Below, one piece after another: positions 1,241 to 20,124 of a stretch of 64,000 nt of DNA. The translations under genes were made by a program, and so were the position numbers. Within the stretch, counting starts at the first letter, position 1. Each line of letters starts with the position of its first letter. The notes under the pieces were generated by a model. That model was not told the DNA's origin, did not search any database, and saw only the letters and a list, made by a program, of their open reading frames with translations. The DNA is from a virus: positions 1-64,000 of IMG/VR virus record IMGVR_UViG_3300046820_000298; one strand, given 5' to 3'.

Positions 1241-4200
1241 TTATTTACCTGAGCCAGCTCCTAAGTTAAACCACTTAGATGCATCGTCTGGATTAGATGA
1301 TTTTTCTATACCACCAACTATTGGGATAAGTTCTTCAAGCTTAGCTAAGAACTTATTATCTCCTTTATCGTGTCTTCCACTTTTTCTAACATAATCTAAT
1401 CCTTCTCTATCTCCTGTGATCATACCACCAAGTTCAGCAGTACCGAGATCCCATAGGTTAGCTACCTTTTGTAGAGGTCTGATAGTAGCTGTTGGAGATT
1501 CAGCCATTTTAAGGAATTCTGTTGGACTAGAGAACTGACGTAATTCTGATTCCATTCTAAGTGCTTGATAAAGCAAGAATTGTTCAGCATATGATGGATC
1601 TTCATCGTCATCATCAGATAGGACTGCTACAGCTAGTACACAAAGTAACATAAATGCAGCTTGTGCTCCGAATCTCTTTATGTTCTCTTGCTCAAACTTT
1701 TCCATGTTCTTATAAACACCTACGAAGTTTCCTTTCTTTTGCCAAGTTTCTTTTACTAATCTAGCAGCTGTGTGGTAGATACCTTCTGATATTGTTCCAA
1801 GTTCTAAGTCTCTATGTAACCCGGCACCTAGTGTACCACTTCCGTGTCCGTAATATCTTCTAAGTGATGGGACAAAGTATCTTCTAAAGAGCATAACTAA
1901 CTTACCCCACCATCTACGTTGTAGAACAGCATCATCAAACTTATTCTTAACCTGGTTTGTCTTCTTAGTCAATCCAGATACTTTCATTCTGAATTTACTT
2001 CTTATCTGATCAGCATTAGCAACCTTTGGATCAATGCCGTATCTACCAGTCTTCTCATCTAGAATGAATACATCCCATAGATTAGCAGGCTTACCAGATT
2101 CATTCATTATTACATTGCCTTGTGCATCTTTGAGTTTACCCTCATAAGATTTCATCATAGCAAGCATTCTAGTAACAGCTGTTTCATTCTCCATTATCCC
2201 TTGAAGGGCCATAGGGATATTTTTTACGGCCTTTAATGCTACTGGTCCTGTTTTGTTTCCTGTATCTGTAGATAGTGTTTCCCCTAATGCATCAAAGAAG
2301 TGAATAGCTTGACCCATCTTTCCTTTAGGGACAAACTTCTCATAGTCTTTCATCTGACCAATACCTTGCAGTTGCAAGTGATAAGTAGATTTAGCCCAAG
2401 CTAGATCTCCTTTAGAAAAGAACTGCCCAGCTACTCCTTCTTCTATAAGTCGTACGTTATCTAAGAGTAACTGGTTACCTGCTTGAAGGGCATTGAATGC
2501 AAGGTTGTTTAAAGCTGTAAAACTTGCTAGTTTACCTGCCATCTTATTATAAGAAAACTCCTTACCTGCAAAGTTTAAGCTCTTTTTAAGCTCCTCTTCC
2601 CCAAAGAATACAGTATCAATAAACTCAGAAAGATGTTTGAAGTTATTTGATACCTCTTTATTAGTTTGATATCTAACTTTACCTACAATCTTAGACCACC
2701 TGTTAACTACTGGAGAGTTATTAGCAGTAACAGCTAGTGGCTCTCTGTTCTCAACTATATCTCTCATGAGCATTACAGCTCCTTGTACCTCAGACTTTCT
2801 CTGGTACATGTTAGACATACCTGCAAACTGAACAATAGCAGAAGCCATGTCTCTAGTTGCAAGCTTTTCGTTGATTGGATTTACGTAGAAGATAGGGATA
2901 ACTTTATCTCTAGCCTCTTTGTTAGCATTGATTGAATCACCGTAGTGAGTATCTGTAGATAAGAAGTTTATAGCATCTCTAGCTTCTAGTTTAGCATAGT
3001 TAACAACCCCATCTTTTTGAACTTTCTCAAGTCCATCAGCAAGTATTGCTGGAGCTACATAGCTAAAGTTCTCCCATGAGTTTCTTATCGGGCCATTCTT
3101 TCCTATCTGTCTCTGACTATCCTTATACACATCTAGAAGAGCATTGTAATATTCGAATGCTGGGCCATTAGCTTTAAGAGCTGTATACTTTGGGTTAGCA
3201 TATTTAGATGCTAATGGCTGAACTGCTCTCCCTTTAAATTGTCTACGTTTAGGATCATAGATTTTATTCATCAAACTCTGGATCTCCTGGATCTGAGAGT
3301 GATAGTAAGCCATCCTGTCTCCGTCGTTAGTATTAGTAGCAGATGCCAATCCTTTATTAGCTGCAGCAAGTTCGTTAGTTAATCTCTGCAATAGCTTCTG
3401 TGAATCAGGGCTAGGCTCAGAGTTGTTAGCATACCAGTTAGATACCTCTTCGTAGAACTGAGCTACCTTAACTTTGTTTTTAGCATCTTCGAACCAAGCC
3501 TTTCTTTCATCTGATGTATTAGGAATACTGTATTTGGTATTAAGCCCATCATACATAGTTGACTCTGCTTTTCTATATCCAGTTACATCTAAAGGTTGTA
3601 CAAAAGTCAGCAATTTTTCTTTTCTACTTTCTCCAGTTTCTGGGTCTCTAACCATGTACTCGTGTACCTCGAGAATATCTTCGTTAAAAGTTACAGGGTT
3701 AACTCCAGAACCTTTAGTCTCTGCAAACTTTCTATATGCATCAGCAACTCTATAAGCTATATCTTGAGTATCATCGTTAGCTTCATACAGTTTATTCTTC
3801 AAAGTCATAGCAAACATCTGAAGACTAACTTGAGATGAATAAATAATAGGATCTAGCAAGTAACTAAATGCAGATTTATCTTTCTGAGCTTCTCTTAATT
3901 CTTTAATCAGAGTCTCTCTTCCTATCTTTTTATTCTCCAGCTGCTGTATGTTTAATGCAAGTTGAGCTTCGAATAAACCTTCTTTAGTTGTGATTTTATT
4001 TCCTTTGCCATCGGTCAATGTACCCTCTTTAAATCTCCTCTCCAAAGATCTCCACTCATCATTCTTATCTGGGGCAATAAGTCTTTTGTTATCTCTAATA
4101 TTTTTAATGACACTATTAATCTGATCTTCTACATCACTATTGTTGTATTCTAGAAGCAAGTCAGCCATCATAGGGATGCCTATCTTATTATAATCTTCTG

Positions 4201-5923
4201 CTATAGCACTCATCTTATTGATAGCACCAAGTAGAGACTGCTCAAGTTTAGTAAGCTTTAGGAACTCCGGATCAGTAGACTGCTGTTCTTGGGTAAGTTT
4301 AGTTTGTAGTTTTATTTTCTTATACCTAGCCAGATTACGTAGCTTAGCCATCAAGCTTTTATTCGGATCCATACCTCCGTAGAAGTTAGATACCGTATCC
4401 CCTACTTTATGTAGTTGGTTGATAAGCTGTAGTCTCTCTGATACAGATAAGTTCTCATTGTACTTTTCATCTATCTCATCAAGCATACTTTCAGCAGTGT
4501 CTGCTACACGAGAAGCATAAGACACAAAGTCCATTAACTGCTCTATCTTCTTAACCTTTTCTAGGTCTTCATACATAAGCTTGAGACGAGCAATGGCTTT
4601 TTCATTAGCTTCTTCTCCTCTCCTTTCTAGCTTAGCTATGTTATCTTTTACAGCAATCTTTACATCTGCAAGTACATTCTCAAAGTCTTCTTTAATTCTA
4701 TCGTCTGCACGACTATCAGCCATCATTGATTTAAGGCTTCCCTTAAACATGGTTCTATCGAATCTTCCTTCTAGCAGAGTCTTAGCTAATTCTTCTACAG
4801 CTGCCTCATTAGTTTGTAGATTCAAAGCCTTTGCAAGTGCTCTGAATATTCTATTAACTATCTGCTGAAACTTGTTAGGCTTGTCTCTATTAATTTTAGC
4901 ACCAGCTAGTCCAATAGCAGTAACTACAACTTCTTTATCTAAGGTATCCTCATCAAGCTCAGGGTATTTATTCTTAACCTTTCTATATAGTTCTGTACCT
5001 TTTAGTTCTTTGATTGCAGCTTTAACTGTTGCATTATCCTCTCCTAATAGCTCAACTAGAAGGTGGCTAAACTCATGGACGTGAGTATCCTCAGTCATAA
5101 GAGTAGGGTTGAACTTGATAGTAACAGGCTTACCTGGTTCTATTACAATTCTTCCTTTTACAGGCAGCTCGGGATCTACTTCTACGTTAATCTCTACTCC
5201 TTGTTTTCTAAAAGCATTCTTTATACTAATGATTTGGTCAGCTACATCTTGGTACTGCACCTCTTCTCCCTCTGCTTCAATCTGTCTACTGTCTGCTTGT
5301 AAGTCAAACATAGAAAGCTGATTCTGTGCAGCATTTGATACTACCTCAGATTCAGCCATTACTGCCATAGCAGGAGCTACTGGAGTGAAAGGGTTGAAGA
5401 CTTGTTGGTATCTAGCTGCTTCGAATGCCCCTCTTTTGTAGTTAGCTACATACTGATACATCTGAGCTCTATCGTATGGGTCTAACTGAATCGGGGAGGC
5501 AAGTTTAACTAGAGAGTTAAGCTGAGTTTCATCTACACTTACATAGTAGTCATGAGTTGGAAGAACTGCAGCGGTCCTACCTGGTCTTGCTGAATCCGGG
5601 GATCCTTTAGATTTAAATCCCTGTAGATTAAACACAGGTTTAGTAGCACCGTAGTTAATAGCAAAGTGCACATTCAATCTAGCCAAAGACTGGATTGGGG
5701 TAATATCTCTACCTTGTTTATTGTTAGCATCCATAAGCAATGGCATGTTTAACTTGCCACCACTTAGTACATATCCGTGAGACTGGATAATCTTATATAG
5801 CTCTTTACCAGAGAGTTGACTGCCAGTAGAAGCAGCTGCGTCGACTGTATTCAGTATTAAAGTCTCAGTAGGGTTAGCTACAATTACTCCGTTACCATCA
5901 ATGTTTGATACTACACAACTCAT
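1241..5923 (-). CDS. giant virion ejection protein with zincin-like metallopeptidase motif and C-terminal hydrophobic helix
   Basis: 1560 aa, directly downstream of the vRNAP as in crAss-like phages. HEFSH (HExxH) at 5063-5077 with downstream EVVVTAIG. TM-like AAFMLLCVLAVAVL near the C-terminus. Confidence 0.75.
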   Translation of the reverse strand: MSCVVSNIDGNGVIVANPTETLILNTVDAAASTGSQLSGKELYKIIQSHGYVLSGGKLNMPLLMDANNKQGRDITPIQSLARLNVHFAINYGATKPVFNLQGFKSKGSPDSARPGRTAAVLPTHDYYVSVDETQLNSLVKLASPIQLDPYDRAQMYQYVANYKRGAFEAARYQQVFNPFTPVAPAMAVMAESEVVSNAAQNQLSMFDLQADSRQIEAEGEEVQYQDVADQIISIKNAFRKQGVEINVEVDPELPVKGRIVIEPGKPVTIKFNPTLMTEDTHVHEFSHLLVELLGEDNATVKAAIKELKGTELYRKVKNKYPELDEDTLDKEVVVTAIGLAGAKINRDKPNKFQQIVNRIFRALAKALNLQTNEAAVEELAKTLLEGRFDRTMFKGSLKSMMADSRADDRIKEDFENVLADVKIAVKDNIAKLERRGEEANEKAIARLKLMYEDLEKVKKIEQLMDFVSYASRVADTAESMLDEIDEKYNENLSVSERLQLINQLHKVGDTVSNFYGGMDPNKSLMAKLRNLARYKKIKLQTKLTQEQQSTDPEFLKLTKLEQSLLGAINKMSAIAEDYNKIGIPMMADLLLEYNNSDVEDQINSVIKNIRDNKRLIAPDKNDEWRSLERRFKEGTLTDGKGNKITTKEGLFEAQLALNIQQLENKKIGRETLIKELREAQKDKSAFSYLLDPIIYSSQVSLQMFAMTLKNKLYEANDDTQDIAYRVADAYRKFAETKGSGVNPVTFNEDILEVHEYMVRDPETGESRKEKLLTFVQPLDVTGYRKAESTMYDGLNTKYSIPNTSDERKAWFEDAKNKVKVAQFYEEVSNWYANNSEPSPDSQKLLQRLTNELAAANKGLASATNTNDGDRMAYYHSQIQEIQSLMNKIYDPKRRQFKGRAVQPLASKYANPKYTALKANGPAFEYYNALLDVYKDSQRQIGKNGPIRNSWENFSYVAPAILADGLEKVQKDGVVNYAKLEARDAINFLSTDTHYGDSINANKEARDKVIPIFYVNPINEKLATRDMASAIVQFAGMSNMYQRKSEVQGAVMLMRDIVENREPLAVTANNSPVVNRWSKIVGKVRYQTNKEVSNNFKHLSEFIDTVFFGEEELKKSLNFAGKEFSYNKMAGKLASFTALNNLAFNALQAGNQLLLDNVRLIEEGVAGQFFSKGDLAWAKSTYHLQLQGIGQMKDYEKFVPKGKMGQAIHFFDALGETLSTDTGNKTGPVALKAVKNIPMALQGIMENETAVTRMLAMMKSYEGKLKDAQGNVIMNESGKPANLWDVFILDEKTGRYGIDPKVANADQIRSKFRMKVSGLTKKTNQVKNKFDDAVLQRRWWGKLVMLFRRYFVPSLRRYYGHGSGTLGAGLHRDLELGTISEGIYHTAARLVKETWQKKGNFVGVYKNMEKFEQENIKRFGAQAAFMLLCVLAVAVLSDDDDEDPSYAEQFLLYQALRMESELRQFSSPTEFLKMAESPTATIRPLQKVANLWDLGTAELGGMITGDREGLDYVRKSGRHDKGDNKFLAKLEELIPIVGGIEKSSNPDDASKWFNLGAGSGK

Positions 5924-5948: not shown

Positions 5949-8900
5949 TTATCCGTTACACAATAGCAAATTATCATTGTCTCTTACTCCAGGTATTTTT
6001 GTATCATTCATAAGTTCTGATAGAGCATCTATAGCTATACCAGCCTTAGCTAGCTTATCAGATGTTGATATGTCTGGGAGTGAGTAGATAGTCTTCCCTA
6101 CAAATGCAGAGTCGAGTCTTGCATATACGAACTTATCTGCTTTTTTACCTATCTTAACAAATGTTCCAATCTCTTTAGTCTTAGAGTTTTTGAAAACTAA
6201 AAATGGTTTGTTTTTAGAACTAGTTAACTCAGTAGTTTTGTTATTAAGTGTTCTACTATTCTCTCTTTCTAGAAGTGGACGACCTTCACTCTTCATAGGG
6301 CCGAACAACTGCATGTAAGTTAGAAGATCTCCAGCATCGAAGTAGTTAGCATTTTCAAGTTTATCACTCTCATCATGCAAGAATTCTAGGATACTTTTCT
6401 TCTGTCCTCCATCAACTGGTTGTGGCTTACTAAAAAACTCTACAGGGATAATGTCGTGGTATGATCCAGCACCTTGTCTAAACCCATTTGATAAGAAACT
6501 ATGCATAGCAAGTTGCTCACCTAACTTTGCAATTGAAAGAGCTTCACTTCTTAGTTTAGGATCTTGTATGACGTCATCTTTAATAACTATACTTTCAGGA
6601 TTTACATTCAAGAAGTACTGAGGACTAAACATCATAGCTCTAAGTGTAGCTGTAAACCCTTCTCTCTCACTTCTAGAGAATGCAAATGATCCGTCAAACT
6701 TAATACCGTAGTACTTTTTAACTGGATCTACCTCAGTTTCAAAGTTAGAGATAAACTTAGTGTAAGCAAGTTTTGGGAATTGCTGCTTCAAAGAGTTAAG
6801 TCTAGTACCAATATTGTTATTAGGGTTACTGTACATTGCCTCAGCATAATTCTGATTCAGGTATCTCATAAATGGAGACCCTTGTTTAGTAAGCATGAGG
6901 AATGTAAGGTTACCGTCTATCATCTGGTGCATAGAAGAGCTTACTCTTTTTACTCCAGCTCCTTTTTTAATTCTTTCTTTCATAGTCAAGAAAGCAGAAC
7001 TAGTTCTCATAGGGAAGAAGTAGCTAGCTACAAGCAAGCTGTTATCCTTAAGAGTTTCGTATCCTCTCTCCAATCCATAGATAGAATCTCTTCCTAAGAA
7101 CTGATCGAGCACATCTCCATTTGGATCAGGACCGAAGAACATCATAGGCTCGGGAGTATCTGTCTCTTGATCTTTTGCAGATTTAAAGTTCTCAGATCTG
7201 TCGTTATAAGCTTGGATGTTACCAATCCTATTAAGACCGTCCATAGAGTCAGGAGTAATTCTCTTGTACAAATCCATAAGCTTATTCCCAGCTTTATGGA
7301 ACAGAATAAAGTTCTGTACATAGTTTAACTGCTTATCTAGATCTCTGTCTTCTTTCGATAGATTTGCTAGATCTGCAGCATCCATAGGGACAGTAACATC
7401 AGCTATCTTAGTTTCTACTGGAGTTTTATCACCAAGAGCTGTTTTCCTTTTAGCCATTTCAGTTCTTATCTCTGTAATGACTATTTTCTTTGCATTATCT
7501 AACTGACTGATATTTCCTCCATATCTCTCTTCAAGTATCGACGTAAGTCTTCTTACATATGGTTGGTTAAGCAAGCTAGTACAAGTAGCAGTATTGTAAT
7601 CAGGATGATAAGCTATAAACAATGCTCTTACTGGAGCAGTGATTACACTATCATTAAGTTCAAGTTGTATCGGGTCTTTACCAGCATCCACGGATGCAGA
7701 CAAGAACAACGAACCTGATTTATCTGTAGTTATTCCTTCTCCAGTGTAAGTTCTGTACTCGGTAAACTCTGTCACCTGACCTTCTGCACCTTTAATCTTA
7801 ATGGCAAAGTCTTTATTAAGATTAACTACACCATGCTGAGCTACGTTTCTTCCTGCAATAATGTTTGCATAAATACCACGAAGTTTATTACCAGCCTGGT
7901 TACGGATAAGGGCATCAGTCTCTGTGCTTATGTCATTCCAGTCTTGAGCTGTATCAAATTCTGGGAGAGCTTCTCTTACTCTATCTACCTCTGACTTGAG
8001 TGTAGTATCATCAAGTGGGGACAATGTTTCAGTAAAGTGTGCAGGATTAGACATCACAGCTTCCATAGTATCTAGAATGATATTGTTAAGCTGCTTGTTA
8101 GATACTGCATTTCTATCTTGAATCATTCCAGGAGTAGTTGCTATTCTTTGATAATCTGGAATTACTTTTTTAATACCGTACTTAGATGTAGGATCTTGTT
8201 CCACTTCTGGGAACATCAAGAAGAGTTTATCTACGTCAAAGTCAGATCCCATAAGCTTAACAAGCTGTCCAGGTACAACTACAGATTTAGCATAATTCTC
8301 AGGGAGGAATGCTTTTATCTTTAAGATTACTGTAGATGCCTTATCCTGGTTAGGGATACGATACCCAATGATTCGTCTTAACTCCTCTGGGACTTCATCT
8401 AGAGATTGACCCGGCTTAATTCCAAACTGCCGAGCTAGATCTTCTCTAATCATTATCTCAGCATGTACAAGTCTTTGCTTACCATTCTCATTAGCTACTT
8501 CATAGAACTTAAGTTCATTATCTGTCCCGTGTCCACCAAGTTGAGCTACCTGTACAGCTTCGTATCCTTTTACAGATTGTTTGAATACTCTGTTACTCAT
8601 CACAGACATGATGATAGATTCAAACTTCTTATTATATATCGGGAGATCAAGTGGAACCTTAAATCTAGGTTTACCAGTAGCATCTAATTCAATATCTAGA
8701 GCTCGGTAGTAGTTAGAATGTAGATCTCCATCTAGAATCTGCTCATAGATGATGTCACGAATGTTCTTAAGTACCTCGAGCTTAGCTTCATTGATAATCT
8801 TAGGATCTTTAGTTCCTAAAGCTTCTGTCAAGTCTGATATCTTAAGCTCTTGCATTACATCTTGCATGTCTCTATCGAGCTTTTCTTCAATAGCAGCATG

Positions 8901-11900
8901 GTACAAAGACTTCATCTGACTACCACTTAGATTTACTTCTGCACCTTTGATACCTGCATTGTAAGTATAAATAGTACCGTCTTGCACGTTAGCCATCATG
9001 TTCTTCTTAATCTGACGGTTAAGAGTAACAACTGGGTTATCCTTCATCTCCGGCATAGTCTGAGGTTTTCTCAATCCTCTAGACTCGTTGATGTTAACTA
9101 CTACTTTATCAAACTCTCCAGGTCTACCTGTTACAGTGTGTACATTTCTCTTAGCTAACTTCTTACCTGATACAAAGTTTACAACATGGACTGGATCCAT
9201 ACCTGCATATACTCCTTCAGCTTCCATTCTCTGACGTAAGTCTTCTAGCTTAGGGAAGTCTTTAGTGTAAGATTTAAGAAGTACAGAGTAAGAGTTCTTT
9301 TCTGATATCGGGGTCATAGAGTTCCCAACTAACTGAAGTTTTTCAAAGTAAGTCTTTGTAGGATATACAGGGACTGCATCTCCGGCTTTGTATCCCTTAG
9401 GTACAAATCCTTGTTGATACACAAACTCTCCAGTCTGCTTGTAGCTCTTATAGGCCATCTCATCTTCCTTAGTCCACTTGCCTTCACCCTGCATCAAACT
9501 TCTATGCATTTCAAGACTGATAAATGCTTGAGCATCAGTAGAGTCGAACTTACCTGGACGGTAAGCATTAGCTATAGCTACAGCTTGGTCTAACGGTACT
9601 CCAGAAGCAACTAGTCCATCTCTCATATTATCTGCAGCTTTGTTTGCTCTCTCTGTTTGCTCAGGAGTAGCATTAAGCTTAAGGTCAGCAAGAGTGATCT
9701 CGTTATAGTTATCCATCATACCATAAGCCTCACCTGGCATCCAGTCTACTGAGCCTACGTTATCAGACTTAAGTGCATATTTAGCACCCGGAGAAGTCAA
9801 GTGACCCATACGTTTGTAGAAGTCTACAAGATCTTTTGAGTAAGCTCTAGATCCACGGAACAGTTTAACCATCTCGTTTCTCATAAGAGTTTCTTCAAAC
9901 ACAAATCCTTCAAGCATCTCATCTATCTTTAGAGCAGGCATACTTACGTTATCTATCCTGTCTAGATGAGTCTCATTATTTGTAGTTTTCTCTGACAATA
10001 TCTGCTTAAGTTTAGCAGCCTGATTCTTCATATAAGTATCAAGCTTACTAACCATTGCATCTAATCTACTGTCTATATCTTGTTGTTCTTCTTTAGACAG
10101 CTCTCCTTTTACATACTTATCTATTACTGTGCTTATAGAAGTTTTATCTATTACACCTTGAGCAGCTTTAGTAAGAGTTTGGTCTGTTACAATCTGCTGC
10201 CCATTCTCATCAAGAGCAGTGAATTGAAAGAACTTAGAATTAAAGGCTCTCCCTAAGAAGTTACCATCTTTATCTATAGTTACTCCAGTCTTTGGGTCGT
10301 TGTGATATCCATCTACTAACAGACTTCTATCTCCACTCTTCTCGGCAGCAACGACTACTCTTCTAGCCTCAGCCATACGTAAGAAGTCTTGTACAATCTG
10401 AGCTTTAATCAACTCAGCTTTACTAGTATTTTGTCTAATCTTAGTAGAAATCTTGCTAAGTCTAGGAACATTCAGTGCTGTAAACTTATCTCTATCAGCC
10501 TGTACAGATGCAAAGATTTTAGTAGTATCTGTTCTTCCTGAGTTAATCCATGCATTAAGACGTACTACATACGAATCTATCTTAGACATATCTCCGTAAG
10601 TTGTAGCATCTTCATAGTCGGCTTCTTTAATAGCATCCAAGTCCTCTAGTCTAAACTCTTTGAAGAACTCTTCATTCTGTAGAGCTCTAAACAAAATAGA
10701 CTGGAACTTAGCATTTCCGTAAGCCCCAATGAATGGGTCTTGCATGTATTTTTCAATGAATGCAGCTTTATTAGTCTTAAGGTCATTCACAATCTCTTGC
10801 ATGTGAGACTGTGTATTAGTAGCATAAACCTGAGCTCCATTTGCAGATACGTGACTTTCCCCAGCTATACTTAGTACAGGGGCAAAGTATTCTGCAAGTT
10901 TTAAAGCTACTGACTTCTTATCAACTATGAAGTTATTATTGTTTGCAGGTTTTGTACCACCTGATAAAATACCGTTAGCTAATTTGAAATCTGCAATACC
11001 TATCATCAAAGAGAACATCTCATTTTGCAATGTTTTTGCAGCAGCCTGCCCTTTAACCTTTCTAGTTCCATTTTCATCTGAAACAAAAAAGCCATTGCTA
11101 ACAATCTTGTGAATGTTATCGTAAGTATCTTGGATGTTTACATTATCCCCAACATTCAATCCCATAGACCACATCAAGTCTCCTAGTGCTTTAACAATAG
11201 GGTTAGTCACACCAGGTTCCATAGGTATATCACCAATAGGCCTTTTAGGCATAACACTTTCTAGAGCTTTAAATGCTTTTACAATCTCATCAACTCTAGA
11301 GTCAAGCCTTGTATAAGTAAGAGTAGGCTCCTCTCCTTCTTTTTCTAAAAGCTGTGGTTTGTACAGACCTCTTGAGGTAGTATCGTCAGTAGCAATTACG
11401 GCATTTCTCCAAGAGTCTACTAACTTCTCAGCTTTACCTTTTCTATTAGGATTAAAGATATCTACCTTAAGTTTATTATTAGCCTCTGAGTTACTCTTCA
11501 TGAGTACAAACTCAGTAGTAGCAAGAGCAAATGCATTATACAACATTGCTTTTTGAGGAGCATCTAATCCTTTTACGAACTCAAGTACAGGGTTAATAAT
11601 ATTTGGTTTGTAAATAGCTGCATTCTCGAGAGCAGCCATCATGTCACTGAACTTTTGTTTTCCAGTAAACACTTCTAGTAACTCTCTGTATACAACCTCT
11701 CTGTCTAGATAAGTATTTACACCAAACTTATTTACCTGTACATTTCCATTGGCATCTGGTAGGCTACTCTTAATAGTAGATAGTAGTTCTTTTACCTTAC
11801 CTGTAAGTCTCTTAGCTGGGCTTGTACCTAGCTCACTCTTACCATATATCTTTTCTATCACTCCGTCAATTGCTTCTAGTTCCTGCTCAATAGCATCCTG

Positions 11901-13133
11901 CTCATCAGTAGGTAATCCTTCATTTTGAAGTTCGTAGGAAGTTTCGTCTTTACCAGTAATTTTAAGTCCGTTATCCTGCAACTTCTCTGCAAGAATATCT
12001 CTCCATCCGTATTTATCAACATTACCAGTAACAGGATTAAGAGTTGTATTCCAAGTCTTATAGATATTAGCACAGATATTTCTCAAAGGGATGTTATCCC
12101 CAAGTGCAGGAGCAGCTCCGTATTTTGCAAATACAGTTTTGATAGTATCTAAATTCTCTTGGCTTTTATTAGCAAGATAAGCAGTTTCAGCAGCAAATAG
12201 CTCCTCTGCTTCAGCAATAGGTAAGCTGCTTCCGTCTTGTTTTTTGTAGAGTCTAGTTAACATTGCATTAGCAATATCTCCTTTATTACCCTCTACTCCC
12301 ATAGCTTTAGATACATTGAAGTTGCTACCTGCAGCTTTCTTAGTATCCATAAAGATTGTATACAGAGTATCTTTAATCTCTGTAAAGTCTTGATCAGTAT
12401 ACTCTGTACGATGCATGTAAGCAACGTCGTGTCCTTGGAACTTCTGTGGGTTTCTGAATACTCCTCTACCTGCCAAGCTCTTACCCATGTTGTTACTCTG
12501 AATCAACGAGTAAGTCTGCTTCAAACTTAGATTATCACTAATCATAGCCTTAATCCAGTTGAACAGATTCTTAAACCACTTAGCCATTTTGCCAAGTAAT
12601 CCTTTACCAGACTCTTCTTCAGTAAGCACATACTCTCTAAACTCCTCAGCCATCTTCTCTTCGAGTACTAGATTACTAGCCTCTTGCTCAGATATATTAG
12701 GGAACTGAGATAGTATGTTAGCTACTTCATCAGCAGTAGGTTCACCAAATTGTTTCTTAGCTTCCTCATACAATCCTTGTCTTTGCTCATCACTAAGCAT
12801 AGTTCTGAAAGTCATGTGGTAAGCTTCGTGGTACTCTGTACCAGATTCAGCTGCAGTCCATAGATGCATACCGGCATTATGTACATACCCGTGTACAAAT
12901 CCATCTCCTACTTGATTAGCAGTATCATAGAACTCCAAAGACATTCCAGGGAATCTCTCTGCCAACCAAGCTTTAGCAGCCGTTTTGTTTATAGTAGCCC
13001 TGATTTTACCAGCATTATTAGCTCGTTCTCTAGCATCCCAGATATAGTAAGCCGAAGCTTTACCGTACTTTTTAGATAGAGCATCAAACTCTTCTTTAAC
13101 TTGTGGATCAGATAGGTTTGGACAAAATGCCAT
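5949..13133 (-). CDS. virion-packaged DNA-dependent RNA polymerase (crAss-like, two-barrel) with N-terminal zincin-like domain
   Basis: 2394 aa. Catalytic YRIPNQ...MGSDFDVDKLF (DxDxD, about 8225-8255), plus STDAQAF and FYKRM-type conserved blocks. HEAYH...EEKMAEEF at 12816-12830. Confidence 0.9.
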   Translation of the reverse strand: MAFCPNLSDPQVKEEFDALSKKYGKASAYYIWDARERANNAGKIRATINKTAAKAWLAERFPGMSLEFYDTANQVGDGFVHGYVHNAGMHLWTAAESGTEYHEAYHMTFRTMLSDEQRQGLYEEAKKQFGEPTADEVANILSQFPNISEQEASNLVLEEKMAEEFREYVLTEEESGKGLLGKMAKWFKNLFNWIKAMISDNLSLKQTYSLIQSNNMGKSLAGRGVFRNPQKFQGHDVAYMHRTEYTDQDFTEIKDTLYTIFMDTKKAAGSNFNVSKAMGVEGNKGDIANAMLTRLYKKQDGSSLPIAEAEELFAAETAYLANKSQENLDTIKTVFAKYGAAPALGDNIPLRNICANIYKTWNTTLNPVTGNVDKYGWRDILAEKLQDNGLKITGKDETSYELQNEGLPTDEQDAIEQELEAIDGVIEKIYGKSELGTSPAKRLTGKVKELLSTIKSSLPDANGNVQVNKFGVNTYLDREVVYRELLEVFTGKQKFSDMMAALENAAIYKPNIINPVLEFVKGLDAPQKAMLYNAFALATTEFVLMKSNSEANNKLKVDIFNPNRKGKAEKLVDSWRNAVIATDDTTSRGLYKPQLLEKEGEEPTLTYTRLDSRVDEIVKAFKALESVMPKRPIGDIPMEPGVTNPIVKALGDLMWSMGLNVGDNVNIQDTYDNIHKIVSNGFFVSDENGTRKVKGQAAAKTLQNEMFSLMIGIADFKLANGILSGGTKPANNNNFIVDKKSVALKLAEYFAPVLSIAGESHVSANGAQVYATNTQSHMQEIVNDLKTNKAAFIEKYMQDPFIGAYGNAKFQSILFRALQNEEFFKEFRLEDLDAIKEADYEDATTYGDMSKIDSYVVRLNAWINSGRTDTTKIFASVQADRDKFTALNVPRLSKISTKIRQNTSKAELIKAQIVQDFLRMAEARRVVVAAEKSGDRSLLVDGYHNDPKTGVTIDKDGNFLGRAFNSKFFQFTALDENGQQIVTDQTLTKAAQGVIDKTSISTVIDKYVKGELSKEEQQDIDSRLDAMVSKLDTYMKNQAAKLKQILSEKTTNNETHLDRIDNVSMPALKIDEMLEGFVFEETLMRNEMVKLFRGSRAYSKDLVDFYKRMGHLTSPGAKYALKSDNVGSVDWMPGEAYGMMDNYNEITLADLKLNATPEQTERANKAADNMRDGLVASGVPLDQAVAIANAYRPGKFDSTDAQAFISLEMHRSLMQGEGKWTKEDEMAYKSYKQTGEFVYQQGFVPKGYKAGDAVPVYPTKTYFEKLQLVGNSMTPISEKNSYSVLLKSYTKDFPKLEDLRQRMEAEGVYAGMDPVHVVNFVSGKKLAKRNVHTVTGRPGEFDKVVVNINESRGLRKPQTMPEMKDNPVVTLNRQIKKNMMANVQDGTIYTYNAGIKGAEVNLSGSQMKSLYHAAIEEKLDRDMQDVMQELKISDLTEALGTKDPKIINEAKLEVLKNIRDIIYEQILDGDLHSNYYRALDIELDATGKPRFKVPLDLPIYNKKFESIIMSVMSNRVFKQSVKGYEAVQVAQLGGHGTDNELKFYEVANENGKQRLVHAEIMIREDLARQFGIKPGQSLDEVPEELRRIIGYRIPNQDKASTVILKIKAFLPENYAKSVVVPGQLVKLMGSDFDVDKLFLMFPEVEQDPTSKYGIKKVIPDYQRIATTPGMIQDRNAVSNKQLNNIILDTMEAVMSNPAHFTETLSPLDDTTLKSEVDRVREALPEFDTAQDWNDISTETDALIRNQAGNKLRGIYANIIAGRNVAQHGVVNLNKDFAIKIKGAEGQVTEFTEYRTYTGEGITTDKSGSLFLSASVDAGKDPIQLELNDSVITAPVRALFIAYHPDYNTATCTSLLNQPYVRRLTSILEERYGGNISQLDNAKKIVITEIRTEMAKRKTALGDKTPVETKIADVTVPMDAADLANLSKEDRDLDKQLNYVQNFILFHKAGNKLMDLYKRITPDSMDGLNRIGNIQAYNDRSENFKSAKDQETDTPEPMMFFGPDPNGDVLDQFLGRDSIYGLERGYETLKDNSLLVASYFFPMRTSSAFLTMKERIKKGAGVKRVSSSMHQMIDGNLTFLMLTKQGSPFMRYLNQNYAEAMYSNPNNNIGTRLNSLKQQFPKLAYTKFISNFETEVDPVKKYYGIKFDGSFAFSRSEREGFTATLRAMMFSPQYFLNVNPESIVIKDDVIQDPKLRSEALSIAKLGEQLAMHSFLSNGFRQGAGSYHDIIPVEFFSKPQPVDGGQKKSILEFLHDESDKLENANYFDAGDLLTYMQLFGPMKSEGRPLLERENSRTLNNKTTELTSSKNKPFLVFKNSKTKEIGTFVKIGKKADKFVYARLDSAFVGKTIYSLPDISTSDKLAKAGIAIDALSELMNDTKIPGVRDNDNLLLCNG

Positions 13134-13143: not shown

Positions 13144-16100
13144 TTAACAGTTATTCTCAGTATTTTTTGCTTGCTCTATAAATTTGGCTGCTTCAGATGC
13201 AAGGTCTTGTATATTTTCAGGGTCACTAGGCTCTTGTCCTAATTCTGCTTGAATAGCTTTTGCTTCTTCACTTCCTGCTTTAACTTCATATTTATTAATG
13301 AAACTAGGAATTCCCGTATCAGTATTCGTAGTTATAGTAGTTTTAGGAGCTGTTGTAGGTATTCCCGTAATGTCAAAGATACCACTTGTATCCTCAGCTC
13401 CAGTTATCTGTACAACTTTTTCTTCATCAGAAACTTGTGGTTGGGAAACTTGAGGAGTTGTTTGAACAGCAGTCTTAGAAATTCCTAACAGATTTTCCAT
13501 AAGTTTAATCAGCTTTGGATCTGATTCATGCAATTCTGTAGTTTCACCAAAAGCTTCATCATACACATTGAAGTAATTTCCTTTAGGAGTAGTCTCCATT
13601 CCAGCTTCTGCAAACTCTTCAAATCCTTGGCCTATAACCATTCTATTTTCATCCGTAGCCTGGTATCTTCCAAAAGATACTGCCACTAAAGGCTCATCAG
13701 GTTCTGTAGTTGTAGATTTAATATCTTTAATTTTACCAGTTGCTAAATTATTTAAAGTTGCTTGCACTGTAGTAGCTGGTACTTGAGGTGCAGGGTTTGC
13801 ACCACGTAACTCCTCTCTTACCTCCATAAGAAGTTTAGGGAATTCAGTTCCCCACTTACCCCTATCTTGTGTATGAGTAAGAGTAGCATTACCTGTAGCA
13901 AGAAGTTTAGCTAGAGCATCTGGGTTTTGTTTGAAAGATTCTAATAATCCTTCTTTCATTATTTCACTAGCTTTACTGTCCCATTCATCTACTTTTAAAC
14001 CTTTAACGGATCTACCCATAGATTTAGCCTGAGCTCCGCTGGCACTTTGAAATTTAGCAAACAAATTTTGATCAAATGGTTCTGTAGAGAAATCCATTTT
14101 TCTTGCTTGAAAATATCCCTCTACAGTATTAAAAGGGTAACCATCAATTTTAAATGGTCTTTTAGCAAAGTTACTTAACTCAGCATTTTCTCCTGTACCA
14201 GCATAGATGTTAATCTTAGTTTCTGGTCCGATAGTAGTAGTTGGCTGAGTAGAAGCTGCAGGCTGTCCTAAAGCAGCCAACTCTGCTTTTTTCTTTTCGA
14301 TAAACTTTTTAGCAGATTCAATTTGACCTTCAAGGGATTCTTTCCTTCTAGTTAACTCTATTATATCGTTTCTAGTTAATTGAAGTTTACTTAATTTATC
14401 AATCTCGTTATTTATTTCCTTTTTACGAGTTTCGTCTTTTGTGTTTCTTAACTTTTCATACAATGCACTTAACTCAGGTTGTAAGTTATTATCAAGTCTG
14501 TTATTAACTTTTGGTAACAAATTGTTTTCAATATCTGCTATTCTGTCTACAGCTTCTTGAATTTCTTTTTCTATTACAGCCTTGCTAGTTGTAGTAGGGG
14601 CTGCACTTACAACAGGTTGAATAGGCTTAGTATCAGTAGGCATTACAACTTGCTTAGCTGCTAACTCTCTTTCAGTAGTTACATCTTGCTCTCTAGTACC
14701 TAAGTTAGTAGTCTTAATCCCCACATCAAAGAATGGAGATTTCTGTGAGTTAACTTCTACGTCAACTCCTAAGATAGCCTTAGTTCCTTTTCCTTCTGTT
14801 CTCTCTTCAAGTATTTCATTCTCAGAAGTCAAGTATTGGAAATAAGAATCATAAACCTGTCCAGTAATTGGTGATGTATATGCTTCTTTAGTCTTAAGCA
14901 AGTTTTTATCAACTTGGAATTTCTTAAGCATTATAGCTTCTTTGAACTCATTAGCTAAGTTAGCTCCTACTGATTTTCTTACAGAGTCATCTTTAGTAGC
15001 TGTTAGTAGGCCTTTAAATCCTTCTTTATTTGTACCAAGTTCTACAAAAGAGAACATAGGGGTGCCACCAGCTAGAGCTACTTTCATATTAGCAGCATTC
15101 ATTCTAACTAGTGAGTTAGCACTTGGGGAGAAGAATGTTATAAGCTCTGTACCGTTAGCAAGAGTCTCAACAAGCATAAACGATTTAGCTGTTTCTACAT
15201 CAGAGAACTCTCTCTCCATCTCACCGTTAATCTCAGTGAATACTTGGCTACCAAGATCTGGATCTACTGAGTCGTTAAGAAGGAGGTTAGTTCCTACAAT
15301 CTGTGAAAACTGGTTAAGGCTAGGTACTTCAGCTTCAATTTTAGCAAGAGCAGCTGTTCTTCCAGCCTCAGTCATGTTTCTTGTAGAAGCCATTACAACT
15401 CTTGGAGCTCCGTTAGGATCAATAACTATTATTCCTACCTGTCCTAATGTAGCATTATTAGCATCTGCAGCAAGAACTGTATCTACTAGGTTAGGTATGT
15501 TACTATCTCCAGCAGTAGCTAATTTAAAGCTTGTCTGGAAATTCTGAATACCAACAAATACAACAGCTGGTGTCTCCCCAGTATTTACTAAAGTAGATGC
15601 AGGGTAGAAGAAGCTAAATCTTTTTTGTAGACCAGTTTGTTTATCCTCGGCAAATACAATAGCATTAGAATAATTGGTACTATCGTACACCTTTCCAGCA
15701 GACATAGCTACTGGAGTAAGACCCTTCTTATAAAGGTCATAGATATCTTTTCTCATAGCCCCTTGCTCACCTGGATTATTTCCAGGAGCAAATGCCTGAA
15801 GTACACCTACAGCTTGTTCTTCACCAGCTTGATCTTTAACATACATAAAAATTGGAACAGTCATCCATTCCTCTCCTGCAGTAGGAGTTTGAGTTGCCCA
15901 CCAGTCAGTATCTTCTCTAACTTCGAATCTAACTTCTGTACCTTCTGTTGCAATGAACGGGCTAGAGGCAAGAGCAGGGTTAACTATAATTGGAACTTGC
16001 CCTACAGTTTGACTTCTGTTATTACTAGGTATAGAGGCTCCTTCTTCTGACACCAGAACCTTACCCTCCATACGAGTTTTCTCTCCTTTAGCAAGTCTAA

Positions 16101-19100
16101 CATCTAGTTGACCAGCTGTAGTCACAGTAATAGGTTGTGCAGCTACTACAGGTTGTGTGGTAGCTTGAGCTTTCTTTTTCTCCTCTTCTAGTTTACGAAG
16201 CTTCTCAGCTTCTTCTCTTTGCTGTCTAAGTTGCTTGGCTTGCTCCTCAGTTAAGATGCCATCCAACCCTTGCGTCGAAGTTCCTTCTCTAGGAGTGATA
16301 TCCTTTCCTTCAGGCTCTTGCCCTTCAGAAGAGATACCAGCTCCTTCGGCAGCGTCACGGTCTTGACGTAATTTCTCAAGTTCTCTTGCTTCATTGATGC
16401 TATTTATTTTGTTTGTACGTTTGGTAATCTTAGACTTAATAACTCCAATCTTTTTATTAACCTCTTTCAAAGATACTGTAGCAGCTGCTACATCTTGCCC
16501 TTCTCCGTATTTACCGTCTATGATATCCTGGTATCCTTTGGCAGCTTTATCAAGTGGTACAAGTTCATCTTCAAACTTTTTAATTTCTTCTTCAAGGCCA
16601 ACTTTAATTAAGTCTTCTTCAGATGGGGATAAAACATTTTCTACTTCAGCTGTAGTCTCAGTAGTGCCTAGAGCATCTTGTCTCTTAGCCTGCTTTCTTT
16701 CACGAAGAGTCTTAATCTTACTATTAAGTAGTTGAGTAATTCTCTTTTTAATAGCTCTTAATTCTTTGGTTTGAGGATCCTGGTCAAACTCTTTTTTAGT
16801 AAATCCAGCTTCCTTAGCTATCTGTTCTTCTATAGTTATAATCTGATTAACTTCTTCTAAATCAGATTTAAGAGTTTCAATCTGAGCACGGAGCTGATCA
16901 TCAGTTAGACCTGCAGTCTTGCTAAGATTGTTTTTAGCAAGCTCTCTCTCCGTCTCTGTAGATTCGTTATTCTCTTCAAACTTTTCTCTTACTGCTGCAT
17001 CTTCTTTTATAGCTTGAATCCTTGGTTCAAGTTGCTCTTTAGCTTCAGCCAATGGAATAGACTGGTCAGCTCTTATAGATGCAGCTTGCAACAGAGTCAT
17101 ATAAGCAAGACCTTCTGCAATTGCATTTTCTCTTTCAGTAACTTCTGGATTAGCAGAGTCTGCTATATCTACTGACTTCCAAGTGACTACATTACCTGTA
17201 GCCATATCAGTTACTTTAACTCCTACAATAGTTCCTAGCTCATCTCTAATTAAAGCATCAACTGGGTCGACTTCTAGGTTTGAATAGGTTCTTCCATCGA
17301 TAGTAAAGCTACTACCGTCAGAACTAACCATTATCTCCCCAAATGTTCTAGCTTCTATATCACTAAGAACTTCTTCGTATGAAGCAGTGGTTGCTGCAGT
17401 AGTAGCTGCATCCGGAGCTTCAAACCCAATATTTTTCTGGAAGTTTTTTTCAGCTTCTAGTTCATCTAGCCTTTTCTTATATCTTTTGTAAGCAGATTCT
17501 TCAATTGGAGATAGCTTCTCAGGATCAATGGCATCGAAATCTTCTTTGCTCATATTTCTGTATCCTGCTATAACTGCATCTTCTTTAGCAATAAGCTCTT
17601 CTCTCTTAACTATAGCTGCAGCAATATCCTCAGGATCTGCATTCTTAGGGAATGAGTTGTTAAGCTCTTCTACAGATTCAGAGTTGGCAACAGCTGCTTG
17701 AGCCTGTTGTTTATTTTTGTACTTATCATCTTGCTTTCTTTTAGCTACTTCAGCTTCTACAAGGAGAGCAATATCCTCTGGCTTGTCTCTTAGAGCTTGG
17801 TAACTTTGAACAGCACTTTGTCTATCCCCAATTAACTGACCTAGTTCTTGAATTTTTTTCTGAAACTGTCTTCCGTCTTCTGGGTTTAAAACACTTTTAG
17901 CTTTAAATATCTCATTAAGTTTCTCATAAAGCTTGGCATTCGGAGTAGTAGTTACCCCACTTGTAATAGATATCTCCCCTTTATCATCAACCTTTACATT
18001 ACCAGTTTTAACTATGTACTCAAAGTCTTCCTCTGGTATTGCAGATAATGCAGGGGCTAGATCACGAAGCTCTTGGTAAGTTTGCTTAATCAAATCATCG
18101 TGTGTATCCACATGTTCTAGTCTATTAAGCAGAACATTAGCATACATAGTTTTGATTGAAGTTTCTAGAGCTTTTGATTTCTTTAACTCTTCACTCTCAA
18201 ATGAATCTAGTATTCTACCGAACATTCCCATTGATGGGTTATGTGCTCTTAGTATATCTTGAACTTGCTCTTGTCTCTTAACACTTCTCTCCATCTTTGA
18301 CTTAACGTCATCGATAAGCTCTCCTTGCTCCATACCAGTTTGCTCTTTAAGAGTCCTGTTAGCTTCGTAGCCCCATCTCTTCTTAAACTCAGTTTCATCT
18401 AGTTGCTTAAGATCGTCCATCATCTCCATTGCATAGTCAAGAGCTCCAACCTTTCTGTATTGGTTAGCTACACTAGAAATAATCTTTCTACGAGCAATCT
18501 CAGCATCTTTAAAGTTGCCAGCATTGTTAGCTTCGGTCATCTCTTTTGCTAAAGCAATATTCCTATCGGATTGCTCCATGTTTTCTAAGACTTTACCGAA
18601 TGCTTCAGAGTTCATTATATCAAGAGCCTTCTTAGTATTTGCATCTTTCTGTTTAGCAAACTTACTATCAGCTCCACCAAGTCTAGAGATAGTACCTGTA
18701 CCACCACCGACTAAAGCTCCAATAAGGATACTTTCAAGTCCTTCTTTAGTCCCGATAGATTTAGATAAGCCGTTAGTAAAGGCTTCTACCATATCTCCAG
18801 TTCCATCAGCAAACTTATCTGAGTAGTAATCTTTAGAAGTTTCAGCTGTTACAAACTGTCCAGCTTCTTGAAAACCTTCAGATAATGAATTTTTTATAGG
18901 GGCACCGAATATTCTATTAGACTTAGCAAATGCTTTAGCCATTCCTTTCTCTGGAATATCTTCTACCCATTTACCTGCTACTTTCTTGATATCATACATT
19001 TGAGATTCAGCTACTGGCTTAATCCCTTTAAACATCTTAGCAAAGCTTATTGCATTTGTACCAGCAAGAAGTGGAAGGTTAACTCCAAAAGTTAAGTTAC

Positions 19101-20124
19101 CAGCTGCAGCTCCAGATTCTTCTATTCCTTTTCTTACATCATCAGGCATCTCCTGACCAGGATTAGCCTCCTCCCATTTAGCAGTTTGTTCTTCAATGAA
19201 ACCATTCTTAGCTTCTCTAGCTTCTACTGATGCTTCAGCAAGAGACATGTGTAATGCAACACTAGTATTTTTAGCAGCTGTTTTTATACCAGCTTGTCTG
19301 GCCATTTTAGCTAATCCTTGATCTATTCCCTTAGCAATATTATTAGTGTAAGGAGCACTAGCAACTTTAGCTGCATTGTAAATCTGTAATTGTTTACTTC
19401 CAAACTTAGCAGCATCTGCCCCAATATCCATTGCCTTATCAGTAGCTTTAGCAATCTTAGACATTCGTCCTAAATTACCTAACTTAGCTATCATAGCTCC
19501 TTCCCCAACACCTAACCAGGCAGTTGCAAGAGAGCCTAATGTATAACCAGCACCATTAGCAAACTTATCAGCCCAGAAATTAGCAGTGGTCATTCCTTCT
19601 AGAACTCCCATATCTTGCTCTCTCTGAGTGTAATAGTTAGGCATAGCCTCTTGAGCCCACTTGTTTATCTCATCAATAGATCTACCTACCGGATTATCAT
19701 AGTAACTGTGGTTTTCTCCAAATGCTAAGTTGAGTAATCCTCCAGCTACACCAACAGTATTTTCTGCAACAGCTCCTAATGCTGTAATTCCAGCTTTAGT
19801 TAATCCATTTGCCCATTTTTCTACAGTACCCTGGTTTTGAGCACGAGTTTCATTCCAATCTGCAAATGCATTTCGTGGAACCCCGTAGCTAGTGTAATCT
19901 TCTAGTGGGTCCGTATAAGTATTTGTTAAACTTATTGTAGCTGCATTTAAGTCAAGCCCAGAAAATCCAGTTCTTGGAGTATTCTGAGTTGGGGCAAATA
20001 CGTTTGCATCTCCTGTCTTCTTGTACATGTAAGTTGCAAACGGATCATTAGACTTCTCTTTAATGTCTTTTACTGGAAGCCCTGACTTCTTAGCAATGTA
20101 ATTTTCAAATGGATCTTCAGTCAT
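13144..20124 (-). CDS. giant virion ejection protein with internal NADAR domain
   Basis: 2326 aa with Gly/Ala-rich hydrophobic N-terminal helices and long coiled coils. NADAR motifs near the C-terminus. First of the three giant genes. Confidence 0.8.
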   Translation of the reverse strand: MTEDPFENYIAKKSGLPVKDIKEKSNDPFATYMYKKTGDANVFAPTQNTPRTGFSGLDLNAATISLTNTYTDPLEDYTSYGVPRNAFADWNETRAQNQGTVEKWANGLTKAGITALGAVAENTVGVAGGLLNLAFGENHSYYDNPVGRSIDEINKWAQEAMPNYYTQREQDMGVLEGMTTANFWADKFANGAGYTLGSLATAWLGVGEGAMIAKLGNLGRMSKIAKATDKAMDIGADAAKFGSKQLQIYNAAKVASAPYTNNIAKGIDQGLAKMARQAGIKTAAKNTSVALHMSLAEASVEAREAKNGFIEEQTAKWEEANPGQEMPDDVRKGIEESGAAAGNLTFGVNLPLLAGTNAISFAKMFKGIKPVAESQMYDIKKVAGKWVEDIPEKGMAKAFAKSNRIFGAPIKNSLSEGFQEAGQFVTAETSKDYYSDKFADGTGDMVEAFTNGLSKSIGTKEGLESILIGALVGGGTGTISRLGGADSKFAKQKDANTKKALDIMNSEAFGKVLENMEQSDRNIALAKEMTEANNAGNFKDAEIARRKIISSVANQYRKVGALDYAMEMMDDLKQLDETEFKKRWGYEANRTLKEQTGMEQGELIDDVKSKMERSVKRQEQVQDILRAHNPSMGMFGRILDSFESEELKKSKALETSIKTMYANVLLNRLEHVDTHDDLIKQTYQELRDLAPALSAIPEEDFEYIVKTGNVKVDDKGEISITSGVTTTPNAKLYEKLNEIFKAKSVLNPEDGRQFQKKIQELGQLIGDRQSAVQSYQALRDKPEDIALLVEAEVAKRKQDDKYKNKQQAQAAVANSESVEELNNSFPKNADPEDIAAAIVKREELIAKEDAVIAGYRNMSKEDFDAIDPEKLSPIEESAYKRYKKRLDELEAEKNFQKNIGFEAPDAATTAATTASYEEVLSDIEARTFGEIMVSSDGSSFTIDGRTYSNLEVDPVDALIRDELGTIVGVKVTDMATGNVVTWKSVDIADSANPEVTERENAIAEGLAYMTLLQAASIRADQSIPLAEAKEQLEPRIQAIKEDAAVREKFEENNESTETERELAKNNLSKTAGLTDDQLRAQIETLKSDLEEVNQIITIEEQIAKEAGFTKKEFDQDPQTKELRAIKKRITQLLNSKIKTLRERKQAKRQDALGTTETTAEVENVLSPSEEDLIKVGLEEEIKKFEDELVPLDKAAKGYQDIIDGKYGEGQDVAAATVSLKEVNKKIGVIKSKITKRTNKINSINEARELEKLRQDRDAAEGAGISSEGQEPEGKDITPREGTSTQGLDGILTEEQAKQLRQQREEAEKLRKLEEEKKKAQATTQPVVAAQPITVTTAGQLDVRLAKGEKTRMEGKVLVSEEGASIPSNNRSQTVGQVPIIVNPALASSPFIATEGTEVRFEVREDTDWWATQTPTAGEEWMTVPIFMYVKDQAGEEQAVGVLQAFAPGNNPGEQGAMRKDIYDLYKKGLTPVAMSAGKVYDSTNYSNAIVFAEDKQTGLQKRFSFFYPASTLVNTGETPAVVFVGIQNFQTSFKLATAGDSNIPNLVDTVLAADANNATLGQVGIIVIDPNGAPRVVMASTRNMTEAGRTAALAKIEAEVPSLNQFSQIVGTNLLLNDSVDPDLGSQVFTEINGEMEREFSDVETAKSFMLVETLANGTELITFFSPSANSLVRMNAANMKVALAGGTPMFSFVELGTNKEGFKGLLTATKDDSVRKSVGANLANEFKEAIMLKKFQVDKNLLKTKEAYTSPITGQVYDSYFQYLTSENEILEERTEGKGTKAILGVDVEVNSQKSPFFDVGIKTTNLGTREQDVTTERELAAKQVVMPTDTKPIQPVVSAAPTTTSKAVIEKEIQEAVDRIADIENNLLPKVNNRLDNNLQPELSALYEKLRNTKDETRKKEINNEIDKLSKLQLTRNDIIELTRRKESLEGQIESAKKFIEKKKAELAALGQPAASTQPTTTIGPETKINIYAGTGENAELSNFAKRPFKIDGYPFNTVEGYFQARKMDFSTEPFDQNLFAKFQSASGAQAKSMGRSVKGLKVDEWDSKASEIMKEGLLESFKQNPDALAKLLATGNATLTHTQDRGKWGTEFPKLLMEVREELRGANPAPQVPATTVQATLNNLATGKIKDIKSTTTEPDEPLVAVSFGRYQATDENRMVIGQGFEEFAEAGMETTPKGNYFNVYDEAFGETTELHESDPKLIKLMENLLGISKTAVQTTPQVSQPQVSDEEKVVQITGAEDTSGIFDITGIPTTAPKTTITTNTDTGIPSFINKYEVKAGSEEAKAIQAELGQEPSDPENIQDLASEAAKFIEQAKNTENNC
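13800..14220 (-). other. NADAR (YbiA-like) domain within the 2326-aa protein
   Basis: LSNFAKRPFKIDG-F-TVEGYFQARK...AKSMGR...W...MKEGLLESFKQNPDALAKLLATG...W...LLMEVREEL matches the NADAR family pattern. Flanked by Pro/Thr/Gln-rich linkers. Confidence 0.85.

Follow-up and report, generated by a model that had tools for sequence, protein, structure and literature searches.

How an RNA-polymerase cargo of ~700 kDa is stored and delivered through the narrow crassvirus tail is an open question, and crassvirus ejection-protein structures are still needed according to a 2026 paper on phage N4 (PMC13434306). The question is raised here by three consecutive genes, A, B, and C, in positions 1 to 64,000 of IMG/VR virus record IMGVR_UViG_3300046820_000298 (the window, 64,000 nucleotides). 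The window is a portion of a crassvirus genome. A and C encode large cargo proteins, B encodes a predicted virion RNA polymerase, and the protein ends that face each other across the A/B and B/C junctions carry cysteines. The pattern is real, and sequence comparison indicates that it probably reflects end-to-end disulfide links between the proteins. The genes and residues concerned are as follows.

13144..20124, minus strand: gene A, cargo protein of 2326 residues, crAss001 gp47 / phi14:2 GenBank gp078 type (PHROG 32390, NADAR, homologues in loci)
13147..13149, minus strand: codon TGT of A Cys2326, with the TAA stop immediately after (translation)
5949..13133, minus strand: gene B, predicted virion RNA polymerase of 2394 residues, homologue of phi14:2 gp66 (PDB 6VR4); 98 homologues
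13014..13133, minus strand: N-terminal tip of B, approximately residues 1-40, M-x-F-C-P-N and then helices (alignment, AlphaFold2 [AF2] model)
13122..13124, minus strand: codon of B Cys4 (invariant alignment column)
5958..5960, minus strand: codon of B Cys2392, two residues short of the end (invariant alignment column)
8229..8243, minus strand: DFDVD catalytic-type motif, B residues 1631-1635 (D1631, D1633, and D1635 invariant)
1241..5923, minus strand: gene C, cargo protein of 1560 residues, crAss001 gp49 / phi14:2 GenBank gp076 type, HExxH at 283-287
5915..5917, minus strand: codon of C Cys3 (invariant alignment column)

The start codon of each open reading frame (ORF) was set at the first ATG. 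A has one cysteine, its final residue (...TENNC). B has four, at positions 4, 354, 1851, and 2392 (MAFCPN... and ...LLLCNG), and C has two, at positions 3 and 1428 (MSCVV...). The trio contains 7 cysteines in 6280 residues, and 4 of the 7 lie within 4 residues of the two junctions. The outer ends of the trio (MTEDP... and ...GAGSGK) have none, nor do the 735- and 1010-residue proteins encoded next to it. The initial annotation had counted these cysteines by eye; its counts and positions in the three proteins were exact on recount, and the cysteine-free outer ends and neighboring proteins were borne out. The B ORF begins 10 nucleotides past the A stop, and the B/C gap is 25 nucleotides.

With 7 cysteines placed at random in 6280 residues, the probability that each of the four facing 5-residue segments receives a cysteine is 3.4e-10, and the probability that four or more of the 7 fall in these 20 positions is 2.6e-9; both values are post hoc. 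The comparative data described below are independent and leave a chance origin untenable. As background, 6 of the 35 other kept ORFs of at least 100 residues in the window have a cysteine within 6 residues of an end, and 2 of these 6 are cysteine-rich. The cysteine content of the other window ORFs ranges from 0 to 6.8%.

Megablast of B against the phage collection returned no match, and a locus search with the single B protein found no relative; an alignment-based scan succeeded. The homologue set comprises 98 proteins found with B, down to ~21% identity. A cysteine lies within 6 residues of the N-terminus in 82 of the 98 and within 6 residues of the C-terminus in 89, with both present in 75. 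Cys4 and Cys2392 of B are invariant in a 23-sequence alignment that extends to 25% identity, and Cys3 of C is invariant in 24 sequences. The terminal cysteines are retained down to ~22% identity, and the prediction that they would be conserved in orthologues held to that depth. P0075 and P0077-P0080 are A+B fusions with a single cysteine, at the C-end, and P0081-P0083 are B+C fusions with a single cysteine, at position 4. Further B homologues lacking a terminal cysteine are short or partial calls. Two internal residues, Cys1851 of B and Cys1428 of C, have counterparts at similar positions in the closest clade (e.g., L001, L005, L006, and L014; L numbers denote loci) and none in L016 and L003.

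The alignment-based IMG/VR scan yielded 78 loci with flanks of up to 10 kb. ORFs on the plus strand of each locus were labeled via BLAST to the window proteins. The loci contain 92 junctions of the A/B/C series, 78 of them distinct. Both facing ends carry cysteine in 76 of the 78 distinct junctions, with 0-5 residues after it at the C-end and at position 3-6 at the N-end, and none of the 78 is one-sided. Broken genes account for the two apparent exceptions. L017 has an interrupted gene A, and the 126-residue ORF directly ahead of B in this locus ends in cysteine. In L064 (3238..7691), C is split by a frame change into ORFs of 968 and 521 residues that overlap by 19 nucleotides, with no cysteine at the break. 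The L064 break reflects a frameshift in sequencing or, alternatively, a recent split yet to gain its cysteine pair. Neighboring genes served as controls:

20129..25374, minus strand: two cysteine-free cargo genes upstream of A, used as control junctions (cysteine count)
20129..22336, minus strand: 735-residue cargo gene (cysteine count 0)
22342..25374, minus strand: 1010-residue cargo gene (cysteine count 0)

At junctions of these types (1010-type/735-type and 735-type/A), a cysteine within 8 residues was found in 0 of 48 distinct cases. Outer ends of the series have none either (N-ends 0/43, C-ends 0/67). Facing cysteines co-occur as predicted. Homologues of the two upstream cargo proteins contain 18 cysteines in 38,972 residues. 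All distinct series proteins together contain 221 cysteines in 358,995 residues; 161 of these are junction cysteines, and non-junction cysteines amount to 0.017% of residues.

The series occurs in four architectures: A|B|C, A+B|C, A|B+C, and A+B+C. In A+B|C forms, cysteines are limited to the C-end of A+B and the N-end of C; in A|B+C forms, to the C-end of A and the N-end of B+C. The 12 complete A+B+C proteins (4627-5639 residues) and nine truncated B+C ORFs contain no cysteine at all. Loss of the facing cysteines upon gene fusion had been predicted, and both the fused A+B+C proteins and the inner fused joints lack them. Fusion state was altered at least nine times overall on trees of the polymerase core. 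A/B state changes number at least 5 (FastTree) or 6 (IQ-TREE quick), and B/C changes at least 4 on both trees; the counts, 5+4 and 6+4, are approximate, and the FastTree tree has long branches for LMMB, phi14:2, L078, IAS, and L047. Cores of fewer than 550 residues were excluded, as were crAss002 gp33 and cr3_1 B+C, which fell below the core profile. Each facing pair appears to act together and to replace the peptide bond of the fused forms, because gain and loss are paired.

Breaks at other places are also flanked by cysteines. In L031, L042, and L058, the A/B break lies ~1000 residues earlier, the new break has cysteines on both sides, and B bears A-like residues 1352-1768 in front. In L047, a 289-residue protein between A and B starts M-S-C and ends C-L, with cysteine at both ends, which identifies it from its sequence as an extra chain link. 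By eye, it resembles a domain that lies inside B behind the tip in L002 and L017. An ORF for a GIY-YIG-like nuclease (221 residues) adjoins the 289-residue ORF at the A/B junction (L047 8261..9792); mobile nucleases may be one route to chain splitting. The moved and added breaks indicate that the cysteine pair tracks the break, not a fixed site.

In the N-terminal tip of B, 17 split forms share invariant M1, C4, P5, and W32. The fused forms displayed lack the tip, and in them B homology starts at profile position 23-43. An AF2 model of B residues 1-260 is poor overall (mean predicted local distance difference test [pLDDT] 58.4); in the tip, residues 1-9, including Cys4, are modeled as coil and residues 10-23 and 25-60 as helices, with pLDDT of 79-87 in 10-residue blocks. 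The tip appears to be a transferable module that marks whichever protein lies downstream of a junction, rather than part of B, because the motif C-P-N-L-S heads the C-type protein in genomes where A and B are fused: L088 (cr52_1) 19414.., L089 (cr118_1) 21346.., and L077 16158...

Selection works on the protein. Junction cysteines are encoded by TGT in 139 cases and TGC in 21, residues flanking the terminal cysteine vary, and gaps between series genes range from -4 to +45 nucleotides. Gene A is encoded on the strand opposite to B in crAss001, IAS virus, and cr106_1, yet the only terminal cysteine of its product is again found at the C-end. A DNA-level junction signal was rejected on the use of both codons, the variable gaps, and the cysteine retained by opposite-strand A.

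Named crassviruses from three families agree with the rule in all 10 cases examined. In phi14:2, the only cysteine of gp078 (GenBank) is its last residue, the polymerase gp077 has cysteines only at 3 and 2179 of 2180, and gp076 only at 3. In crAss001, gp47 has a cysteine only at 2339 of 2341, gp50 at 5, 1334, and 2404 of 2412, and gp49 only at 5. The cr106_1 phage also fits. The A|B+C type is represented by the Intestiviridae LMMB, cr3_1, and crAss002, and the A+B|C type by the Suoliviridae cr125_1, cr52_1, and cr118_1. The giant genes of L087 (cr125_1) and L088 (cr52_1) contain 26-78 in-frame stops under table 11, i.e., a recoded stop codon, and the rule holds at the annotated ends of both phages.

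Automatic annotation can conceal the pattern. The database call for B (P0001) lacks 120 residues of the ORF, starts with Leu, and omits the conserved cysteine tip; the long N-terminus, M-x-x-C-P-N, is kept in homologues of 70-83% identity. The rule can also aid annotation: a cysteine at position 3-6 marks the true start, as for crAss002 gp33, and small cysteine-tipped ORFs mark additional chain links, as in L047.

What the cysteines do is read as follows. A, B, and C are the split form of one polypeptide of up to ~5600 residues in other crassviruses. At each split, the upstream protein has a cysteine at its end and the downstream protein one at its beginning, and the pair would form a disulfide in the assembled virion. 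We consider it fairly probable that the facing pairs are inter-protein disulfides in the extracellular virion and that one covalent A-B-C chain, with A paired to B and B to C, takes the place of the peptide bonds in the fused forms. The simplest chemistry is a disulfide, which has a solved precedent in phage A4. Near-absence of other cysteines would prevent wrong cross-links, and links at the extreme ends would keep the chain nearly linear. During storage, and probably also during tail passage, the chain would keep the cargo proteins joined, ordered, and equal in number, and the reducing host cytoplasm would open the links. The placement of cysteines 0-5 residues from the ends favors a near-linear, threadable chain; a simple split of a polypeptide would leave the same placement. 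The initial annotation had proposed terminal cysteine pairs that join the three proteins by disulfides or a metal bridge into an ordered chain, threaded into the host as one unit and released in its reducing cytoplasm. That interpretation is partly supported: its comparative predictions all hold, and we infer the disulfide, one-unit threading, and cytoplasmic release.

Several points weigh against a disulfide-linked chain. The host cytoplasm is reducing and the gut is anoxic, which leaves the time and place of disulfide formation uncertain. No Pfam thiol oxidase or thioredoxin was found among the 26 of 38 listed window ORFs scanned. Pairing of A with the N-end of B versus that of C is invisible in sequence, and the assigned order relies on the colinear arrangement of the fused forms. 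Exclusion of cysteine is not absolute (10 in IAS gp056, 8 in LMMB B+C, and 8 in L047 B). Among the 98 homologues, P0094 has 10 cysteines, none of them terminal; P0086 has its cysteine 9 residues short of the end; P0044 and P0046, putative short calls, have no N-end cysteine; and P0095 and P0098 have no C-end cysteine. The C-side cysteine of crAss001 gp50 lies 8 residues before the end, beyond the 0-5 range. IAS fits only with gp055 and gp056 read as one gene broken by ambiguous bases, and agreement for crAss002 requires that gp33 start at an internal M-S-C, 32 residues downstream. Neither gp47, gp49, nor gp50 was resolved in the crAss001 atlas, and its available text lists disulfides only for gp57 and the tail ("disulfide" occurs 7 times, always for these, and "cysteine" 0 times; PMC10172136). 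Co-packaging or a stabilizing staple also explains the same data. Co-folding prediction of B 2145-2394 with C 1-230 using custom alignments scored 0.28 against a mark of 0.32, neither for nor against binding.

A further step, held only tentatively, is a redox-cleavable pseudo-polyprotein. A single unfolded thread of ~6300 residues would exit the tail, and cytoplasmic reduction would cut both links to free and activate the RNA polymerase. In fused forms, proteolysis would do the job of reduction; an HExxH domain follows shortly after each junction. The conditional link could then be built from either a disulfide or a peptide bond, and crassviruses would have exchanged one for the other at least nine times.

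Among the rivals to the linked chain, the strongest, though still unlikely, is that the facing disulfide staples a folded cargo complex in the capsid, for co-packaging and stability, and is not part of one thread through the tail. The A4 disulfide is described as stabilizing a folded pre-ejectosome, a pentameric ring, in the text consulted (PMC12002296), and a folded, helical structure is predicted for the crAss001 cargo proteins (PMC10172136, in part). The B tip is a conserved module of ~40 residues and not a bare cysteine. If fused forms are cleaved, as proposed in the consulted part of 10.1101/2020.03.07.982082, continuity would matter for packaging only. A staple, however, needs neither cysteines 0-5 residues from the very end (76/78 junctions) nor strict colinear order, and co-packaging requires a link formed in the reducing cytoplasm before or during assembly.

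It is improbable that each terminal cysteine is instead attached to something other than its series neighbor (the portal, the capsid interior, the tail, or a second copy of the same protein). Pairing partners are invisible in sequence, and other small virion proteins of the window end in a lone cysteine (228-residue ORF, 33262..33948). The series cysteines, however, come and go as facing pairs, with 0 one-sided among 78, and the full fusions are cysteine-free, whereas a need for dimerization or anchoring would persist there.

The terminal cysteines could also be bridged by a common metal ion (Zn, Fe, or Cu) or engage in some other non-disulfide clasp that depends on thiols, a reading to which we give very little weight. 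The anoxic gut and reducing cytoplasm disfavor disulfides, and paired gain and loss suits any pairwise thiol clasp. One cysteine per side, however, supplies only two metal ligands, with no conserved His or second cysteine adjoining. The analogous A4 pair is a disulfide (PMC12002296, as far as its text was available), and inter-subunit disulfides occur in gp57 and in the tail of crAss001 virions (PMC10172136, likewise in part).

Chance, an annotation artifact, or a DNA-level junction signal is scarcely credible: the genes abut (10 and 25 nucleotides) and starts were set at the first ATG, but the pattern has P ~3e-10 in the window, is kept at 22-30% identity with varied flanks, gaps, and codons, is seen at none of the 48 control junctions, and persists in A on the other strand.

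The surrounding genes are those of a crassvirus structural module. Pfam matches include Crass_capsid (4.9e-83, 43605..45029), tail ring protein 1 (CrAss_Ring_1, 2e-56, 30941..31837), and tail ring protein 2 (CrAss_Ring_2, 9.6e-35, 34454..35176). Past the capsid and ring genes, the minus-strand order is a 1850-residue virion protein, the 1010- and 735-residue cargo-type proteins, A, B, and C. A search for tRNA genes found none. B is identified as the virion RNA polymerase by homology to the solved enzyme of phi14:2 (6vr4_A, E=3.3e-17) and, in tblastn, to annotated crassvirus RNA polymerases, and the three Asp of its DFDVD are invariant across 23 aligned homologues. The DFDxD motif is named in 10.1101/2020.03.07.982082, in the part consulted.

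Residues 1979-2110 of A contain a NADAR domain (PF08719, 8e-18; 13795..14190, minus strand). It could be a pre-loaded enzyme countering DNA ADP-ribosylation defense. Its location differs in relatives, e.g., within B in L032. HExxH (zincin-type) motifs occur soon after both junctions, at B 102-106 (12816..12830, minus strand) and C 283-287 (5063..5077, minus strand). H283, E284, and H287 of the C-side motif are invariant, and the B-side motif is retained in the fused forms displayed. Elsewhere in the window, the 228-residue ORF at 33262..33948 (minus strand) has its sole cysteine as the last residue (...GGKNC), and its neighbor, a 298-residue ORF (32353..33249, minus strand), has a cysteine two residues short of the end. 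The same region in LMMB, crAss002, and cr3_1 encodes small proteins that terminate in a basic tail containing C-G-G. The small cysteine-ended ORFs gave no match in PHROGs or Pfam; they may form other virion disulfides.

The rule is concretely and cheaply testable on two cultured phages, phi14:2 and crAss001. If true, a disulfide can substitute for a peptide bond repeatedly in evolution. The rule would also explain why cysteine is avoided elsewhere in these giant proteins and would provide a redox switch for starting early transcription.

Fused and split architectures, the A4 disulfide, and cysteine suppression in ejection proteins are already in print. No statement of a crassvirus terminal-cysteine rule, or of its covariation with fission and fusion, was found in the literature, a search that did not cover supplements and the published version of the phi14:2 paper. 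The 2026 N4 paper (PMC13434306) contains no statement of the rule, and the words cysteine, disulfide, and Cys each occur 0 times in the text of 10.1101/2020.03.07.982082.

Virion data are available only for crAss001 and phi14:2, whose cargo blocks are homologous to window A, B, and C and have the same cysteine tips. Their proteins were detected in virions by mass spectrometry, according to the portions of the sources consulted (crAss001 gp47, gp50, and gp49, PMC10172136; phi14:2 g067-g066-g065, 10.1101/2020.03.07.982082). The latter source, as consulted, also notes, citing earlier genomics, fused "polyprotein" forms in crass-like phages and proposes proteolytic cleavage into components. The published fused forms have the same domains in A-B-C order as the split window genes. 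Set against the published cleavage proposal, the complete full fusions found here are cysteine-free and every break brings a cysteine pair.

Schitoviridae ejection proteins (N4 gp50 and DEV gp71-gp73) are cysteine-suppressed, a feature linked to passage through the oxidizing periplasm in the part of PMC11445570 consulted. Like the window trio, they are giant, nearly cysteine-free ejected proteins that include a virion RNA polymerase. Unlike the trio, their polymerase is one chain of 3400-3500 residues, and the available text of PMC11445570 reports no terminal cysteine pairs. The A/B/C series, with 0.017% non-junction cysteines over all its distinct proteins, shows the same suppression. Avoidance of the Schitoviridae type accounts for the cysteine-free background, and the terminal pairs stand out against it.

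Split inteins likewise have cysteines at the ends of two products from one polypeptide. A split intein was rejected here: Pfam matched only NADAR and Phage_30_3 in A, B, and C, with no Hint domain, and cysteines 0-3 residues from the ends in the window (at most 5 overall) leave no space for intein halves.

The nearest functional parallel is the cyanopodophage Anabaena phage A-4L (A4, Saffermanviridae; PNAS 2025). Its gp27 (1717 residues, only cysteine 1715) and gp26 (1114 residues, only cysteine 5) are encoded by consecutive genes (KF356198). Cryo-electron microscopy resolved a disulfide between gp27 Cys1715 and gp26 Cys5, and the C-terminal helix of gp27 sits in a gp26 cleft (PMC12002296, in part). 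Sequence homology to A4 gp26-gp29 was rejected: the window proteins gave a best blastp E=0.017 in a six-protein database and no phmmer hit at E<=1, i.e., no detectable similarity. A4 differs from the window in having just one pair where the window has a chain of three, and in lacking an RNA polymerase; the available text of PMC12002296 reports no fission/fusion rule for its disulfide. A4 and the window share consecutive ejection genes with a near-lone cysteine at the C-end of the upstream protein and the N-end of the downstream one. By analogy, the window trio would work like the A4 pair without being a member of the A4 family.

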